Sequence record: PZ242158.1
From: a phage
Reading direction: 5' to 3' (one strand)
DNA: 64,000 nucleotides
Shown here: positions 30,347 to 63,215 of the stretch, piece after piece
Layout: the number at the start of each line of letters is the position of its first letter
Numbering within the stretch: position 1 is the first letter of the stretch
Made by a program: the position numbers and the translations under genes
The notes under the pieces: model-generated
What the model saw: the letters and a program-made list of their open reading frames with translations, nothing else
What the model was told of the DNA's origin: nothing
Databases searched by the model: none

Positions 30347-30684
30347 GTTTGTGGAGAAATATCGTTAACTACGTGTGCGGCAATCCAACTCCTGAAGAGA
30401 AGGATGTTGTGATTCACGATTTTACTAAAAGATCTCGTGAAAAAGATCTACTGCTAACAAAGGTGACTGATAAAGATCCTGCAGTAGGGGACTGGGCAGG
30501 TTTTGCGTTTACATCGGACAAATACACCTTTAACAAAGGTGACTACCTTGTTGTGGATTTTAACGAAGACATTGAGGGTGCTGAACCTTACTATCAAACC
30601 CTTATTGTTGCAGGGTGTGTTGATCTCTCTGCAGGCATGCACAGTTTGATTCTTTTTGAGCTTGACTCTGAAGACCTTGAGTAG
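30343..30684 (+). CDS. hypothetical protein
   Basis: 113-aa ORF overlapping helicase stop. Confidence 0.35.
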   Translation: MSLWRNIVNYVCGNPTPEEKDVVIHDFTKRSREKDLLLTKVTDKDPAVGDWAGFAFTSDKYTFNKGDYLVVDFNEDIEGAEPYYQTLIVAGCVDLSAGMHSLILFELDSEDLE

Positions 30685-57796: not shown

Positions 57797-58216
57797 ATGA
57801 ACATTAAATCTAATAATCCGGCATATAGCTTTGATAACGCTTTTTGTCACGGTCCGGCGGCGAAAGGATTCGAAATCGATGGTAAACTAATTATTGTCAA
57901 TGTTGACGGGGAAGAGGTTGCAGTATATCCGGTGGCAGACGTAAAAAGCCGTTTACAATGCCGCATGGATGTTACCGCCTATCAGCTTGATCCGGTCCGC
58001 ATAGTTGCCCTGGTCCTGGAAGAAGAAATTAAAGCCATGCACCATAGCAACAGGTTTATTGGTGACGCTCAGGATAATATGAAGGTGTGCCGCCATAAAG
58101 TTAATGAAGTGCTTAAAGAGTACGGCTATAAAGATCTTATGATCAAACGTGATGAAAAATTCCGGTACCGTAACGACCTGGCAAATCGGATTTTTGAAAT
58201 ATACGAATCATTATAA
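57797..58216 (+). CDS. hypothetical protein
   Basis: 139-aa ORF, SD TAAGAGGTAAAAA. Confidence 0.45.
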   Translation: MNIKSNNPAYSFDNAFCHGPAAKGFEIDGKLIIVNVDGEEVAVYPVADVKSRLQCRMDVTAYQLDPVRIVALVLEEEIKAMHHSNRFIGDAQDNMKVCRHKVNEVLKEYGYKDLMIKRDEKFRYRNDLANRIFEIYESL

Positions 58217-58234
58217 TTTTTTAACTGAATTATC

Positions 58235-58259
58235 AAGGGGCTTAGGTCCCTTTCTTTTT
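58235..58259 (+). terminator. intrinsic terminator ending the + strand early array
   Basis: AAGGGGC-ttag-GTCCCTT + TCTTTTT. Confidence 0.5.
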
Positions 58260-58870
58260 GTCTGCTCTTCCTCCCTACCATAAACGGCCCTACCTGGCAA
58301 GTGGAATAATTGACGAGCCATCAATCCCACACACTGTACAAATATACATGTAAAATAACTATTGCATAACCTTTCATTGTGTGGTAGCGGTGCTATTTTT
58401 ACCCGTTTTCCTTCCAAAATTGCACGTAATGCAGCTATTGCACAAAATTTAACCTGATGCGCATCTTCAATATCTTGTCAACAACTAAAAATCTTTATAA
58501 GTCATACACTTACACAAACCAAAAAGCGTGTTCTACGTGAAAAATCGAGTATAACTATAGCCGACAGATCTCAGAATTTACGTACGCTCACCATTCTATA
58601 GCCTGCTAAGTATTTATTCCGACCATAGAATAACAGAATAGTCAATACCTGCATAAAATAATTATTCGTTTAAATTGCATAACATAAATCAGCTCAGGTG
58701 TCAACATTTTTCGTAAACAGTCTGAAATTGTCACGGCAAGTTATCATAATCAGAGAAATCTTTAGTCGTCTAATGTTTACTGTACGTTACTATACTAACT
58801 GGAATCATTAGATGACTAATAGAAAGATAAGAAATAATTAACAATACAATTATTTTATCTGTAACAATAA

Positions 58871-59044
58871 GGCAACTATGCAAACGAATGGCATGGCGCG
58901 ACGGAGTCGCGACATAATATAAAAGCAGTAACCATCACCCCCGTGATAGTTTGTCTGCAATCTATTAATCAGATCATAGTTGCCTTGTATTTAGTTAATC
59001 ATGACATAACAAGCAAGGCAACTATAGATCTTCTAATAGTTGCC
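58871..59044. repeat. array of inverted 9-bp half-sites GGCAACTAT/ATAGTTGCC (operator- or centromere-like)
   Basis: Half-sites at 58871 (+), 58976 (-), 59017 (+), 59036 (-); the last pair forms a palindrome with a 10-bp spacer; 20-mer ATGCAAACGAATGGCATGGC repeated at 58878 and 59150. Confidence 0.45.
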
Positions 59045-59282
59045 CTGCTTTTATATTATGTCATATATTATTAACTTGTTAATTGTTAGTCAGTCAAATC
59101 AACAGCGTTATCATTTCAGTCTTTATTGTTGTTGATCGTTATTGTTATCATGCAAACGAATGGCATGGCTTATCATCTCTGTATAAACAGTTTATGCGTG
59201 AACAGTGAGGCATGCAATAGTAACAATTGTTATTGTGTCATCATGTCAAGGGTAAAGTGTCATAGTATGTCAGACATGTTTT

Positions 59283-59716
59283 TCCCCTCTTTGTCAAGTG
59301 CTGCATGAAAAAATTTACAAGCTGGTATGGTAGCATTTTTGCGGCCTTGTTTACATTCAGGAGTGTATGTATAATCCTTGTTGTGTGGGCGTTTATACGT
59401 CTGGACGGTCAGAAGTCTGCAGGTTAATATCTAATCTATTGGCTGCTAACTATATCCCACACAAATGATAAGAAATATAATTGTTATATGCGTAAACTGT
59501 AACTCATGTTATCAATCCCTGTATGTATCGCCAGTGGTGCGCATAATGGGTATTATGTTAAATTGCCCGTAATGATAACAGTTCTCACAATGATAGGTAT
59601 TCTCATTCATCCACACAAAATAGGTTGCAAATGTTGTGCCACTGTGTGAACGGCCTGGCCTATTAATTTCTCTCACTGCCTCGATATTTGAGAATTGTTA
59701 TAAGAATGAGAAGTAT
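59283..59716. repeat. 434-bp perfect direct repeat, copy 1
   Basis: Identical by eye to 59843..60276 over the full 434 bp; contains a promoter-like TTGTTT, 17 nt, TATAAT. Confidence 0.8.
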
Positions 59717-59842
59717 CCATGTTTATATTACATCTACTTGGTTCAGAACCAAAATGCGCGAAAGCGTTTCACGATAACTAGCGACCACGGTCTGTTCCCT
59801 GGCGGCCATACGGCTTCTACTGAACGCAGCAGAGGGCGATAA

Positions 59843-60276
59843 TCCCCTCTTTGTCAAGTGCTGCATGAAAAAATTTACAAGCTGGTATGGTAGCATTTTT
59901 GCGGCCTTGTTTACATTCAGGAGTGTATGTATAATCCTTGTTGTGTGGGCGTTTATACGTCTGGACGGTCAGAAGTCTGCAGGTTAATATCTAATCTATT
60001 GGCTGCTAACTATATCCCACACAAATGATAAGAAATATAATTGTTATATGCGTAAACTGTAACTCATGTTATCAATCCCTGTATGTATCGCCAGTGGTGC
60101 GCATAATGGGTATTATGTTAAATTGCCCGTAATGATAACAGTTCTCACAATGATAGGTATTCTCATTCATCCACACAAAATAGGTTGCAAATGTTGTGCC
60201 ACTGTGTGAACGGCCTGGCCTATTAATTTCTCTCACTGCCTCGATATTTGAGAATTGTTATAAGAATGAGAAGTAT
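59843..60276. repeat. 434-bp perfect direct repeat, copy 2
   Basis: Offset exactly 560 bp from copy 1, separated by a unique 126-bp spacer (59717..59842). Confidence 0.8.
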
Positions 60277-61304
60277 TCCCATTCCGTCCGCCTGGCAGCG
60301 CTCCTGTAGGTCCTGCAAGGACTCTAGCTTTCAGCTAGACCCTTCGGGCCTCCCTACAGGTCAGGTCAAAATCGTGGTAGAATTGGGCCTATTCAGATAT
60401 TTCTGGCTGACTCTTCAGGTCTGTGTGGGAAAAGCCAACCTCTCCGGCGGGGCAGGGGGAGGTCAATTAAAAAATTTACGTGGTGTATGAAGCGCTCTTC
60501 AGGTAAGGCAGGTATTATGGGATGAAACCCTCTTCAGGCAATGATATTTGTGGGTGTGATATTTGCTGGAAAGCCAGATATGACGGGACTCCCGGCGGGG
60601 CAGGGGTAGTACAGACAGGGAAAATATGAGAATGTAGTTGGGGAAATTGATCAGACAGGTAGAGTATGGAATATGTTACAAGTATGTTAAATATGGAGGT
60701 TGAATATCTGTAGGATTTGTGTGTAAAATCAAAGACTTAAGGGGTGTTGTGATATTTTCTATAAATAATTCAAGTTTAATAGGTGATATTTGTCTCTATC
60801 CGCTTTGTGTGGTAAACAGATTCAGATGAGATTGGTTTACAAGTGTATACATAATATACAAATTAAAGATACAAGAAACCCCCCATCCCCCTTCGGCTAC
60901 CATTCACCTTTTCCTCTGACTGGTACTTAAACACTTATTCAGACTCTTCAGGTTATCACCCATATATCATATGGCAGTGACTGGTGTCCTCCGGCCCCTC
61001 TTTCGTCACCCGTCCGCTTCGCCATGCTAATGCCATAGCCAATGGTTCGGTTGTTCACCCTGTTCACTCAGGTGTATCTCCATACCCCTTCAAACCGAAG
61101 AGAACAGAAAACCCGAATTACTCGGTAAAAGAAAAGAGAAGAACTTAATTTTATCAGGATAGGCAAGAATGTCAAGGCATGACTGCTCACTAAACAAGCA
61201 AACAGTCATGTGTGGGAGGTAAGTGATTGTGGTGGTGGGAAATTTAGTTGAAAGATGTGTTATAGGTGCGCTTCCAGCACTTTAGCCGGGCAGCTAATTG
61301 TGTG

Positions 61305-61520
61305 TCAGTCCAGTGGTTCATCACCTACTTCACTGAAATCAATGTTCATGGTCTCCTCCCAACCATCAATCTCAGCACCAGAGTAGAGATCTTTAGGACT
61401 TACTCCCAAAGCATCAGCAACAGAGTCCATATTTAACACCTCTGGCAGGTATGATTCATCGAATTCAAGGTAAATCAGGCCACGAGTGTTGTCAGCTCCA
61501 CCAAATATTTCTATCTTCAT
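61305..61520 (-). CDS. hypothetical acidic protein
   Basis: 71-aa ORF, SD on - strand (GGAGA); first gene of the - strand small-gene block. Confidence 0.4.
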   Translation of the reverse strand: MKIEIFGGADNTRGLIYLEFDESYLPEVLNMDSVADALGVSPKDLYSGAEIDGWEETMNIDFSEVGDEPLD

Positions 61521-61641
61521 GAAATCTCCTCTGGAAATGAGAGTGTGAACAGGGTTTTATACGTTCCGATGCACAGGAATTATGCACGTTTGCCTCTTCA
61601 GGCCATGCTTTAGCATGAGGAACCTGTGTGGGCTCGGTGCT

Positions 61642-61854
61642 TCATAGTCTACCACCCCTGAACTCTTCGTGCTCAGGCATAATAGAGAACCAGATATCTA
61701 CGATGTCTTCCCACGTTAGGTCATCAGCCTCAGGATCTACCTGGAGCGAAGATGGAGAATCTTCAGAATCTAAGTTTTCCTCTTTCACTGGCTCAGCCAA
61801 GGGACATATAGTCACTCCTTTGGATGTCTCTTCAGATGCATGTGTGTTTATCAT
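61642..61854 (-). CDS. hypothetical acidic protein (weak)
   Basis: 70-aa ORF, no clear SD; an overlapping + strand ORF (61628..61867) is equally plausible by eye. Confidence 0.25.
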   Translation of the reverse strand: MINTHASEETSKGVTICPLAEPVKEENLDSEDSPSSLQVDPEADDLTWEDIVDIWFSIMPEHEEFRGGRL

Positions 61855-62214
61855 GTTCCACCCGTGAGTATTCCGGCAACAGCCGCTATGGACGTAATGA
61901 TCATCAGGATCACCACTAAAACTTCGGACAATGTTCTCATTGTGTACTCCATATTCTACAAACTATGTGTGGATACTATCACTGGATCGGTAATGTGTCA
62001 ACAGAAACGCCGCGAGGGTTTGGTTAAAATCCGAGCGTATGGTGATTTGGGTCAAAACGGACGTGCGTTCTCGCTACGCTCGAAATATGGAGTTGTTTGT
62101 AGGGAGCTCTTAAACGCTCTGTAATGAGATTAACTGCCCAAGGTATGCAATCGTGCACCAGATAAAGAAAAGGACGCCACAGAGCGTCCTAGGTGTCTTA
62201 AATTTGATATTTTG

Positions 62215-62909: not shown

Positions 62910-63215
62910 TTATTCTACAGAGCGTTTGAACAGAATGTCTGCCTCGGACATGTGCTCAACCTCTTCTTCGATTTTAGCTCGACGTTTTTCAGCCTCATAG
63001 CGAATATCGAACTCGGTAGCCACCAGAGATTTGATGAATTTAGGAGAATACAGGTGATCCTGCTTCTCAACGAGAATGATATCCTTAATGGCATCTTTCA
63101 GATCTTTAATCTGAAGTTGGAGTTCCACCAGTTCTTCGATTGTCTTGCGAAGGCGATCACGCTCTGCAGTGTCAGAAGGAAGAGAGGTGAACAGTTCAAC
63201 TTTAGATTTAGCCAT
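62910..63215 (-). CDS. coiled-coil protein
   Basis: 101 aa, heptad-like charged sequence; SD AAGGAGA on - strand. Confidence 0.45.
   Translation of the reverse strand: MAKSKVELFTSLPSDTAERDRLRKTIEELVELQLQIKDLKDAIKDIILVEKQDHLYSPKFIKSLVATEFDIRYEAEKRRAKIEEEVEHMSEADILFKRSVE

Follow-up and report, generated by a model that had tools for sequence, protein, structure and literature searches.

What does a phage keep in a long gap between operons in which no gene can be found? The question is raised by a 64,000-nt stretch of phage sequence record PZ242158.1 (hereafter the window), in which positions 58217–61304 are free of open reading frames (ORFs) and separate two convergent operons: the rightward genes end at 58216, and the last ORF of the leftward genes ends at 61305. 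A first-pass annotation had singled out four elements in this gap—copies of GGCAACTAT in both orientations, resembling an operator or a centromere or packaging site; a candidate structured RNA; and two repeated motifs, CTCTTCAGG and CCGGCGGGGCAGGGG. The answer proposed here, held with high confidence as a joint claim, is that the gap is the concatemer-junction or genome-terminus region, that its core is a direct terminal repeat (DTR) of ~460 bp, and that the repeat has been doubled in this record by an assembly artefact. Packaged linear DNA carries the DTR at either end, and each unit of the replicating concatemers has it once.

As judged by nucleotide identity, the window is assigned to Vequintavirus, i.e., to the rV5-like phages of Escherichia coli: positions 58260–61300 are 92–98% identical to 122 Vequintavirus records and are covered to at least 80% in 98 of them. 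The genome paper of rV5 draws the gap as "non-coding" and reports that the bidirectional terminators expected between genes 163 and 164 were not found (PMC3606486). Hence, the DTR and the existence of the noncoding gap are already known; in the literature searched, the anatomy flanking the DTR is not described and no functional study of the region was found. Conservation was assessed in a 17-genome alignment, which consists of the window minus 560 bp and 16 relatives and is colinear.

Direct terminal repeat and virion ends

The boundaries of the DTR follow from aligning both ends of the EdH4 record and the start of the Pr121LW record: the first and last bases of EdH4 and the first base of Pr121LW lead to 59273 (GACA...) and 60292 (...CGTCCGCC), and the bov11CS3 record terminates exactly at 60292/60293. 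After de-duplication, the DTR has a length of 460 bp. It is 95.6% identical to the DTR of EdH4, which carries it at both record ends, and is covered to at least 80% in 118 of 120 records. Records from several laboratories begin or end at the DTR—EdH4, HdK5, and ECP2309 (two places each), bov11CS3, Pr121LW, and EcoIv14a. Those with determined ends (EdH4, HdK5, and ECP2309) hold it at both ends; relatives assembled across the junction hold a single copy. Short terminal redundancies of 458 bp were published for EdH4 and HdK5 (PMC6563267), and a 459-bp terminal repeat with an identical start for all virions was published for Gotham (PMC7471380).

The link to packaging that the first-pass annotation had drawn holds insofar as the virion DNA ends lie inside the region, at 59273 and 60292; the packaging is, however, of neither the cos nor the classical headful pac type that it had named. 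Packaging by cos requires cohesive ends without terminal redundancy and is ruled out by the redundancy of 458–460 bp. Headful packaging from a pac site gives permuted, imprecise ends and was rejected because records of independent laboratories start at the same nucleotide, as do the virions of Gotham.

Inside the DTR, an imperfect 18-nt tandem repeat of ~1.9 copies is found at ~59565–59600 and 60125–60160; it is the repeat_region annotated in phages navn and Alma.

Duplicated repeat and adaptor spacer

In this record, an exact direct repeat of 434 bp is formed by 59283–59716 and 59843–60276, which are identical at 434/434 positions and lie 126 bp apart. Tandem Repeats Finder reported nothing, the 560-bp period being above its limit. 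The 126-bp spacer gave no match in BLAST searches against 50,697 phage records and 5,426 E. coli genomes. Its minus strand aligns with the right-end (R-end) adaptor of phage Mu at 31/35 positions, including 20 consecutive bases, with a score of 52 versus a maximum of 31 among shuffles. This adaptor is the flank of the nanopore rapid-barcoding adaptors, and the spacer also carries two imperfect copies of nanopore adapter sequence. The R-end adaptor sequence, used with MuA transposase, is printed in PMC4005685 and PMC5517011. In keeping with the surplus, the query of 3041 nt corresponds to only ~2450–2570 nt in relatives.

Most simply, both virion ends were connected head to tail by the assembler via an untrimmed adaptor. 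The 10 and 16 nt missing from the two copies would, again on the simplest reading, be the few end bases out of reach of the transposase. On this reading, the 560 bp of 59717–60276 are absent from the real phage and, being artefactual, place the hairpin-rich element, the CTCTTCAGG repeats, and the CCGGCGGGGCAGGGG repeats 560 bp too far to the right compared with the real genome. Since the artefact is an adaptor-mediated join of physical ends, it also marks the virion ends independently. That the 560 bp instead arose in this isolate by real tandem duplication, together with an insertion of foreign DNA, is scarcely credible: the sequence is present in the window and tandem duplications do occur in phage noncoding DNA, but the unit agrees with the independently mapped DTR to within 10 and 16 nt, there is no difference between the copies (100% identity) compared with 2–8% among relatives, and the only match of the insert is to a synthetic Mu-end adaptor, not to any biological sequence. 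The source record thus holds 560 bp of nonphage structure—a duplicated DTR plus adaptor—that needs correction, and it serves as a warning that, if the terminal repeats of a phage are short, a long-read assembly may bury the true ends inside a contig.

TGTCA array at the left boundary

No other part of the region is as variable as the stretch directly left of the DTR (59170–59272), where the pairwise difference is 0.44–0.72. This stretch features same-strand copies of TGTCA that occur 1–7 times per genome (at least 3 in 13/17 genomes) and ~10 bp apart, compared with a background of 1.45 per kb. In most genomes the copies lie ~5, 15, 25, 35, and 45 bp from the DTR boundary, and the last one—at 59268 in the window—abuts the first base of the DTR; TGTCA followed directly by GACA marks the boundary in 17/17 genomes. 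The copy number and the surrounding sequence differ strongly among strains. A phased array of short repeats ending at the cut is the typical look of terminase recognition sites, such as cosB of phage lambda and pac of phage P1. From its position and phasing, the TGTCA array may be regarded as the top candidate for the terminase recognition or packaging signal.

Composite inverted repeat on the left flank

The motif GGCAACTAT has two plus-strand copies (58871 and 59017) and two in reverse complement (58976 and 59036), all at precisely the positions given in the first-pass annotation. It is also present in coding DNA at 58001 and 3075; the six matches in the window compare with 0.55 expected, and 0/100 shuffles reach this number. 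The palindromic pair with a 10-bp spacer that had been described is real as well, with arms of 15 nt (59011–59025 and 59036–59050) that are 93% complementary. The four copies are, however, not the independent operators they were taken for but arms of one nested inverted repeat of 152 nt. This composite repeat is located 210 bp outside the DTR. Its outer stem (GACATAATATAAAAGCAG / CTGCTTTTATATTATGTC) spans 18 bp and encloses a small hairpin to the side as well as an inner stem of 28 bp, which includes the pairing of the GGCAACTAT copies at 58976 and 59017. Its predicted folding energy amounts to −62.6 kcal/mol for plus-strand RNA (z = −12.0), −50.8 kcal/mol for minus-strand RNA (z = −6.9), and −45.5 kcal/mol for DNA (z = −8.5).

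The composite repeat was found in 118 records and is at least 95% identical in 108 of them. Among its 11 distinct sequences, none breaks any of the 61 pairs (100% of cells retained), and 9/11 variable sites are unpaired (P about 6e-5); no pair is changed on both sides, i.e., there is no covariation. The repeat of rV5 and A147 carries a 33-nt insertion in the apical loop. The arms are under purifying selection—which fits a DNA or RNA hairpin and, equally, palindromic protein sites. Numbering the GGCAACTAT arms 0 to 3 from the left, the alternative pairings 0:1, 1:2 (−24.1 kcal/mol), and 2:3 (−19.9 kcal/mol, followed by UUUUAUAUU) are all stable.

Hairpin insertion and short repeats on the right flank

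On the other side of the DTR, the first-pass annotation had proposed a structured RNA with an 8-bp outer stem enclosing three short hairpins. The outer stem (CCUGUAGG/CCUACAGG) is indeed formed, but the interior of the minimum-energy structure is nested and does not consist of three independent hairpins; the fold of 60298–60365 has −29.8 kcal/mol and z = −3.1. As a structured RNA the element fails on distribution: the insertion is present in only 32 of ~121 records, in one copy each and always at the same locus. Among the 17 aligned genomes, seven have it, five hold an unrelated segment of ~33 nt instead, and five lack it. Most carriers feature CCTGTAGG as the 3′ arm, which results in two G.U pairs, and GAA instead of TTC in the middle loop. 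A mobile miniature element was considered, since the 8-bp direct repeat CCTGTAGG does flank the insertion, and rejected, as it occurs as a single copy at one site in the 32 records. The insertion is a rearrangement hot spot next to the end and not a conserved RNA gene.

Farther out, CTCTTCAGG is found five times on the plus strand at the positions first listed (60411, 60495, 60530, 60944, and 61594), and one reverse-complement copy is located at 30391; the six matches compare with 0.48 expected and 0/100 shuffles. DNA ends had been anticipated near these sites, but the copies lie 119, 203, 238, 652, and 1302 bp outside the DTR. For the 15-mer CCGGCGGGGCAGGGG, two matches versus 0.03 expected were found: one at 60444, as reported before, and the second at 60592, not at ~60584; both are preceded by AAAGCCA. 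In most genomes, the stem of the GC-rich hairpin that holds the first CCGGCGGGGCAGGGG copy is preserved despite indels in the loop and shifted pairs; in three genomes it is disrupted. The segments 60380–60480 and 60480–60625 fold no better than shuffles on either strand (z from −0.7 to +1.3), and the local ORFs are broken; therefore, the CTCTTCAGG and CCGGCGGGGCAGGGG motifs are read as DNA-level iterons. The earlier statement that no coding feature explains the motifs stands, as there is no convincing ORF over any of them and nontriplet indels cut the small annotated ORFs. The expected conservation in related phages is likewise borne out, with the motifs present across ~120 of them.

Three further observations concern these repeats. 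An ATG precedes CTCTTCAGG by 8 nt at both 60495 and 60530 (ATGAAGCG... and ATGAAACC...). On the minus strand, CATAAT is found 9–10 nt after CTCTTCAGG at 60530 and 61594 and is a possible −10 element. TGATATTT(G), a direct repeat of the right flank, also occurs at 60396 and 59683.

Ultraconserved block and its predicted promoter

The right part of the gap holds a noncoding block of 365 nt, in which the mean pairwise difference is ~0.01 in seven consecutive 50-nt windows of the alignment. The corresponding values are 0.05 (median) in the next, mostly coding 1.5 kb and 0.05–0.10 in the rest of the gap; the conservation of 60895–61260 is about five times that of the neighboring DNA. The block has no credible ORF, no Rfam match, and an unremarkable fold (z = −1.6 and −0.06); therefore, the constraint seems to act on the primary sequence. 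RNA structure in the block was also examined by alifold with a check of the pairs and was rejected, since substitutions break pairs as often as they keep them. The block carries the best promoter match of the region (61175–61148, minus strand), whose hexamers are invariant, the variable sites being confined to the spacer or the upstream part.

Just upstream of this promoter, at ~61181–61213, lies an 8-bp inverted repeat (CATGACTG/CAGTCATG). At the edge of the block, a C-run (60875–60895) that reads as a G-run on the minus strand (GGGGGATGGGGGG) varies in length among genomes; the G-run is located ~260 nt downstream of the minus-strand promoter. At the opposite end of the gap, the stem of the terminator at 58235–58262 is retained in the 17-genome alignment despite changes of loop and stem in relatives. 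The features of the region are summarized in Table 1.

Table 1. Features of the terminus region (window coordinates; a dot denotes no strand assignment)
Feature	Coordinates	Strand	Basis or remark
Intrinsic terminator closing the rightward operon	58235..58262	+	Terminator scan; last ORF ends at 58216
First GGCAACTAT copy (A0)	58871..58879	+	Can pair with the 58976 copy
20-mer ATGCAAACGAATGGCATGGC	58878..58897, again 59150-59169	+	Bounds the block missing from FV3
Composite inverted repeat (hairpin or cruciform), 152 nt	58911..59062	.	Fold z-scores, conserved pairs; 3/4 GGCAACTAT copies inside
Alternative local hairpin (59017/59036 palindrome) followed by CTTTTATATT, terminator-like	59011..59062	+	−19.9 kcal/mol
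Fast-evolving iteron zone: GTRAAC repeats, then TGTCA at 59236, 59244, 59258, 59268	59170..59272	+	
DTR copy 1 (one virion end), without last 16 nt	59273..59716	.	EdH4 and Pr121LW alignment; exact repeat
Nonphage spacer, residue of MuA-transposon library adaptor	59717..59842	.	No phage or E. coli match; adaptor alignment
DTR copy 2 (other virion end), without first 10 nt	59843..60292	.	EdH4 alignment; bov11CS3 record end
Hairpin-rich 50-bp insertion, flanked by CCTGTAGG repeats	60303..60360	+	10 bp outside DTR
CTCTTCAGG iterons 1–3 (60411, 60495, 60530)	60411..60538	+	Nearly invariant, 17 genomes
GC-rich hairpin CCTCTCC/GGGGAGG holding CCGGCGGGGCAGGGG copy 1 (60444-60458)	60438..60463	+	
TGATATTT(G) direct repeats at 60542, 60557, 60750, 60784	60542..60791	+	
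CCGGCGGGGCAGGGG copy 2, without conserved hairpin	60592..60606	+	
Ultraconserved noncoding block, 365 nt	60895..61260	.	Mean pairwise difference
CTCTTCAGG copy 4, inside the ultraconserved block	60944..60952	+	Nearly invariant
Near-consensus sigma-70 promoter TTGACA-16-TAAAAT with upstream TG	61148..61175	-	Best promoter match of the region; aimed at DTR
CTCTTCAGG copy 5, between two leftward ORFs	61594..61602	+	Invariant in the alignment covering it

Proposed function and alternative explanations

That the gap is a terminus region with adaptor-joined ends in this record, and that its motifs are conserved cis-acting DNA signals flanking the DTR, is considered probable. That these motifs act in packaging or in duplication of the repeat, rather than in replication or at the RNA level, is put forward tentatively. 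The most likely content of the flanks would be signals for concatemer processing and packaging at the DNA level together with end-proximal transcription signals. In the corresponding model, the terminase would recognize the TGTCA array and cut at the DTR boundaries, after which the DTR would need to be duplicated, as in phage T7. For T7, a hairpin intermediate and the requirement for DTR duplication are summarized in PMC4281155. The 152-nt palindrome, 210 bp away, would be a candidate for a snap-back hairpin or cruciform during this duplication, a terminator for converging transcription, or both. On the other side, the variable hairpin insertion, the CTCTTCAGG, TGATATTT, and AAAGCCA...CCGGCGGGGCAGGGG iterons, and the ultraconserved block would follow, with the promoter of the block firing into the junction, reminiscent of the polymerase pause at the junction of T7.

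A stronger version of this model is a dedicated end-making module of a myovirus, in which the terminase docks on the TGTCA iterons and cuts between TGTCA and GACA, snap-back of the palindrome primes copying of the 460-bp DTR, and transcription of the junction from the invariant promoter licenses the reaction. This version is very doubtful; T7-like hairpin priming of repeat copying has, to our knowledge, never been shown outside the T7 group. In a softer variant, the four GGCAACTAT arms would form a switchable terminator/antiterminator.

Other explanations ascribe the conserved features to proteins, RNA, or replication. Very improbable among these is that the motifs lie inside unannotated small protein-coding genes such as APCEc02_065 and _066: some records do annotate ORFs of 35–90 aa here (one labeled "structural protein"), and both 15-mers share the reading frame in two adjacent ORFs, where they read (S/P)GGAG, but relatives carry indels of 1, 2, and 4 nt inside these ORFs, the ATG of ORF _066 is AGG in the window and in 8/17 aligned genomes (kept in nine), ribosome-binding sites are absent, the ORFs of the DTR are interrupted by stops in the window, and CTCTTCAGG falls in different frames. 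Less easily set aside, though still rather unlikely, are transcription signals combined with small noncoding RNAs. The palindrome would then be either a processing hairpin of the RNase III type or a terminator or attenuator whose four GGCAACTAT arms exclude one another, and the right flank would give rise to short leftward RNAs that start from promoters at 61175 and 60541 and end at the GC hairpin of 60438–60463. A zone between convergent operons needs terminators, and the stable alternative pairings of the arms, the terminator annotation that Alma gives to the 59017/59036 hairpin with its T-run, and paired-site changes that give U.G on the plus strand all suit this explanation; so do the promoter-like minus-strand sites 61175–61148 and 60541–60514 and the GC hairpin, which is retained through indels and followed by TTGGCTTTTCC on the minus strand. 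What weighs against it is that no Rfam family matches, that no compensatory double changes occur anywhere, that the ultraconserved block lacks a structure signal, that the CTCTTCAGG and CCGGCGGGGCAGGGG segments fold like shuffles, and that a canonical terminator at 58235 already closes the rightward operon. A small RNA from a promoter at 59082 was rejected, since the −35 element of this promoter is not conserved. Compensatory changes in relatives, the general hallmark of structured RNA, were thus not found, and only the GC hairpin of 60438–60463 features shifted pairs.

A transcription-primed origin of DNA replication is quite unlikely. It would draw on the iterons, the AT-rich DNA, the palindrome, and a strong promoter whose transcript would be G-rich (GGGGGATGGGGGG, ~60890, minus strand), and it gains from the several families of same-strand iterons, from the AT-rich left flank with its 25 promoter-like sites versus 14 expected, from the near-consensus promoter, which precedes a G-run of the transcribed strand by ~260 nt, and from an ultraconserved sequence with neither coding nor RNA structure. 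Yet no initiator gene adjoins the region, the iterons next to the DTR vary in number among strains, the palindrome is dispensable in FV3, and the literature searched holds no link of the region to replication. Nor is there a cluster of DnaA boxes, as would mark a DnaA-dependent origin: with one mismatch allowed, boxes near the region occur only in the DTR copy (59607, and 60167 through the artefact) and at 61968, and the 29 boxes of the whole window (19 expected) are spread out.

Several findings sit less well with cis-acting DNA signals at a fixed terminus. The virion ends of this genome are placed by homology and from the assembly artefact itself, and for another Vequintavirus headful packaging was inferred by PhageTerm (PMC13211470). 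In the palindrome, two paired-site A-to-G changes lead to U.G and preserve the pairing on the plus strand only, which hints at a constraint at the RNA level, and phage Alma (OV101294) has the 2:3 hairpin under the annotation Terminator_26. Only one copy of the 20-mer ATGCAAACGAATGGCATGGC is found in phage FV3, which lacks the whole block between the copies, palindrome included; therefore, the block is dispensable—unless the FV3 record is faulty because of a palindrome-deletion artefact. The CTCTTCAGG copies are irregularly spaced, at intervals of 84, 35, 414, and 650 bp, and one of them is found upstream of a gene, at a distance of 1.3 kb from the DTR. Finally, the other genera of Vequintavirinae have no homologous region for comparison.

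Distribution and neighboring features

Searches beyond the genus gave little. Distant blastn with each flank returned only Vequintavirus, all at 80% identity or above, and no homologues of the region outside the genus. Mydovirus, Seunavirus, and phage A73, reached by synteny via a regulator-like protein of 101 aa, have no comparable gap in their gene order. A scan of IMG/VR with an ultraconserved 24-mer matched only two contigs. Rfam gave no match at gathering scores in the whole window and, at E ≤ 5 within 58200–61700, just two chance matches to long noncoding RNAs; a scan for tRNA and tmRNA found none.

The protein in question is encoded on the minus strand at 62910–63215, with an identity of at least 99% across 115 records (100% for the rows listed). 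It is labeled as a transcriptional regulator or double-stranded DNA-binding protein in some records, and homologues of 42–58% are found in Mydovirus, Seunavirus, and Certrevirus. It is a candidate binder of the conserved sites. A second near-invariant patch at 62003–62085, with one variable site in 83 nt among the 17 genomes, overlaps a minus-strand ORF of 44 aa (62024–62158) and has fold z-scores of −0.3 and −1.6. The motif CCCACACA / TGTGTGGG is enriched, with 12 copies in the window versus 2.75 expected; eight of the 12 lie in 58326–61632 (six after de-duplication), and they form no DnaA-box cluster.

Approximately 19 GenBank records of the series MG0656xx, entered as "Campylobacter phage" (D1, A142, C2, and others), are 93–98% identical to this region. 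They are labeled as Campylobacter jejuni phages and marked UNVERIFIED; they are probably mislabeled or contaminant Vequintavirus genomes.

Comparison with known systems

The closest counterparts are the published DTRs of Vequintavirus, i.e., those of EdH4 and HdK5 (458 bp) and of Gotham (459 bp). They are 93–97% identical, have the same boundaries, and occupy the same place between convergent early-gene blocks. The present record differs in that both copies are adjacent inside the record, each 10–16 nt short, with adaptor residue between them. The publications give the repeat length only and no flanking signals. For phages with short fixed terminal repeats, recognition of the junction and duplication of the repeat are understood only for T7, and there only in part. 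The rV5-like phages are common candidates for therapy and biocontrol, and the region offers mutable targets for packaging studies, engineering, and rebooting: the array of iterons that ends at the cut, the giant palindrome present in nearly all relatives, the iterons sharing one strand, and a promoter-bearing block of 365 nt.

With intrinsic or bidirectional terminators and attenuators, the composite repeat shares a palindrome followed by a T-run where operons meet and mutually exclusive pairings. Its stems are, in contrast, very long, A/U-rich, and nested in an 18-bp outer stem, and the element lies 650 nt beyond the operon's own terminator.

The TGTCA array resembles the arrays bound by terminases—the R sites of lambda cosB, the hexamer repeats of P1 pac, and pacL/pacR of SPP1—in having short repeats of the same orientation, approximately one per helical turn, beside the cleavage position. 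Those systems lead to cohesive ends or to headful, permuted genomes, whereas the ends here are fixed and carry a redundancy of 460 bp.

The concatemer junction of T7 features a 160-bp terminal repeat and an RNA polymerase pause site. There is no sequence similarity to it, and the present phage is a myovirus that would use host sigma-70-type promoters; its palindrome is far larger (152 nt) and missing from one relative, and the steps known from T7 are candidates only. The two systems are nevertheless alike in layout: fixed ends with a short direct repeat that needs duplication by the time packaging is under way, a nearby sequence that can form a hairpin, short repeats arrayed close to the ends, and a promoter directed into the junction.

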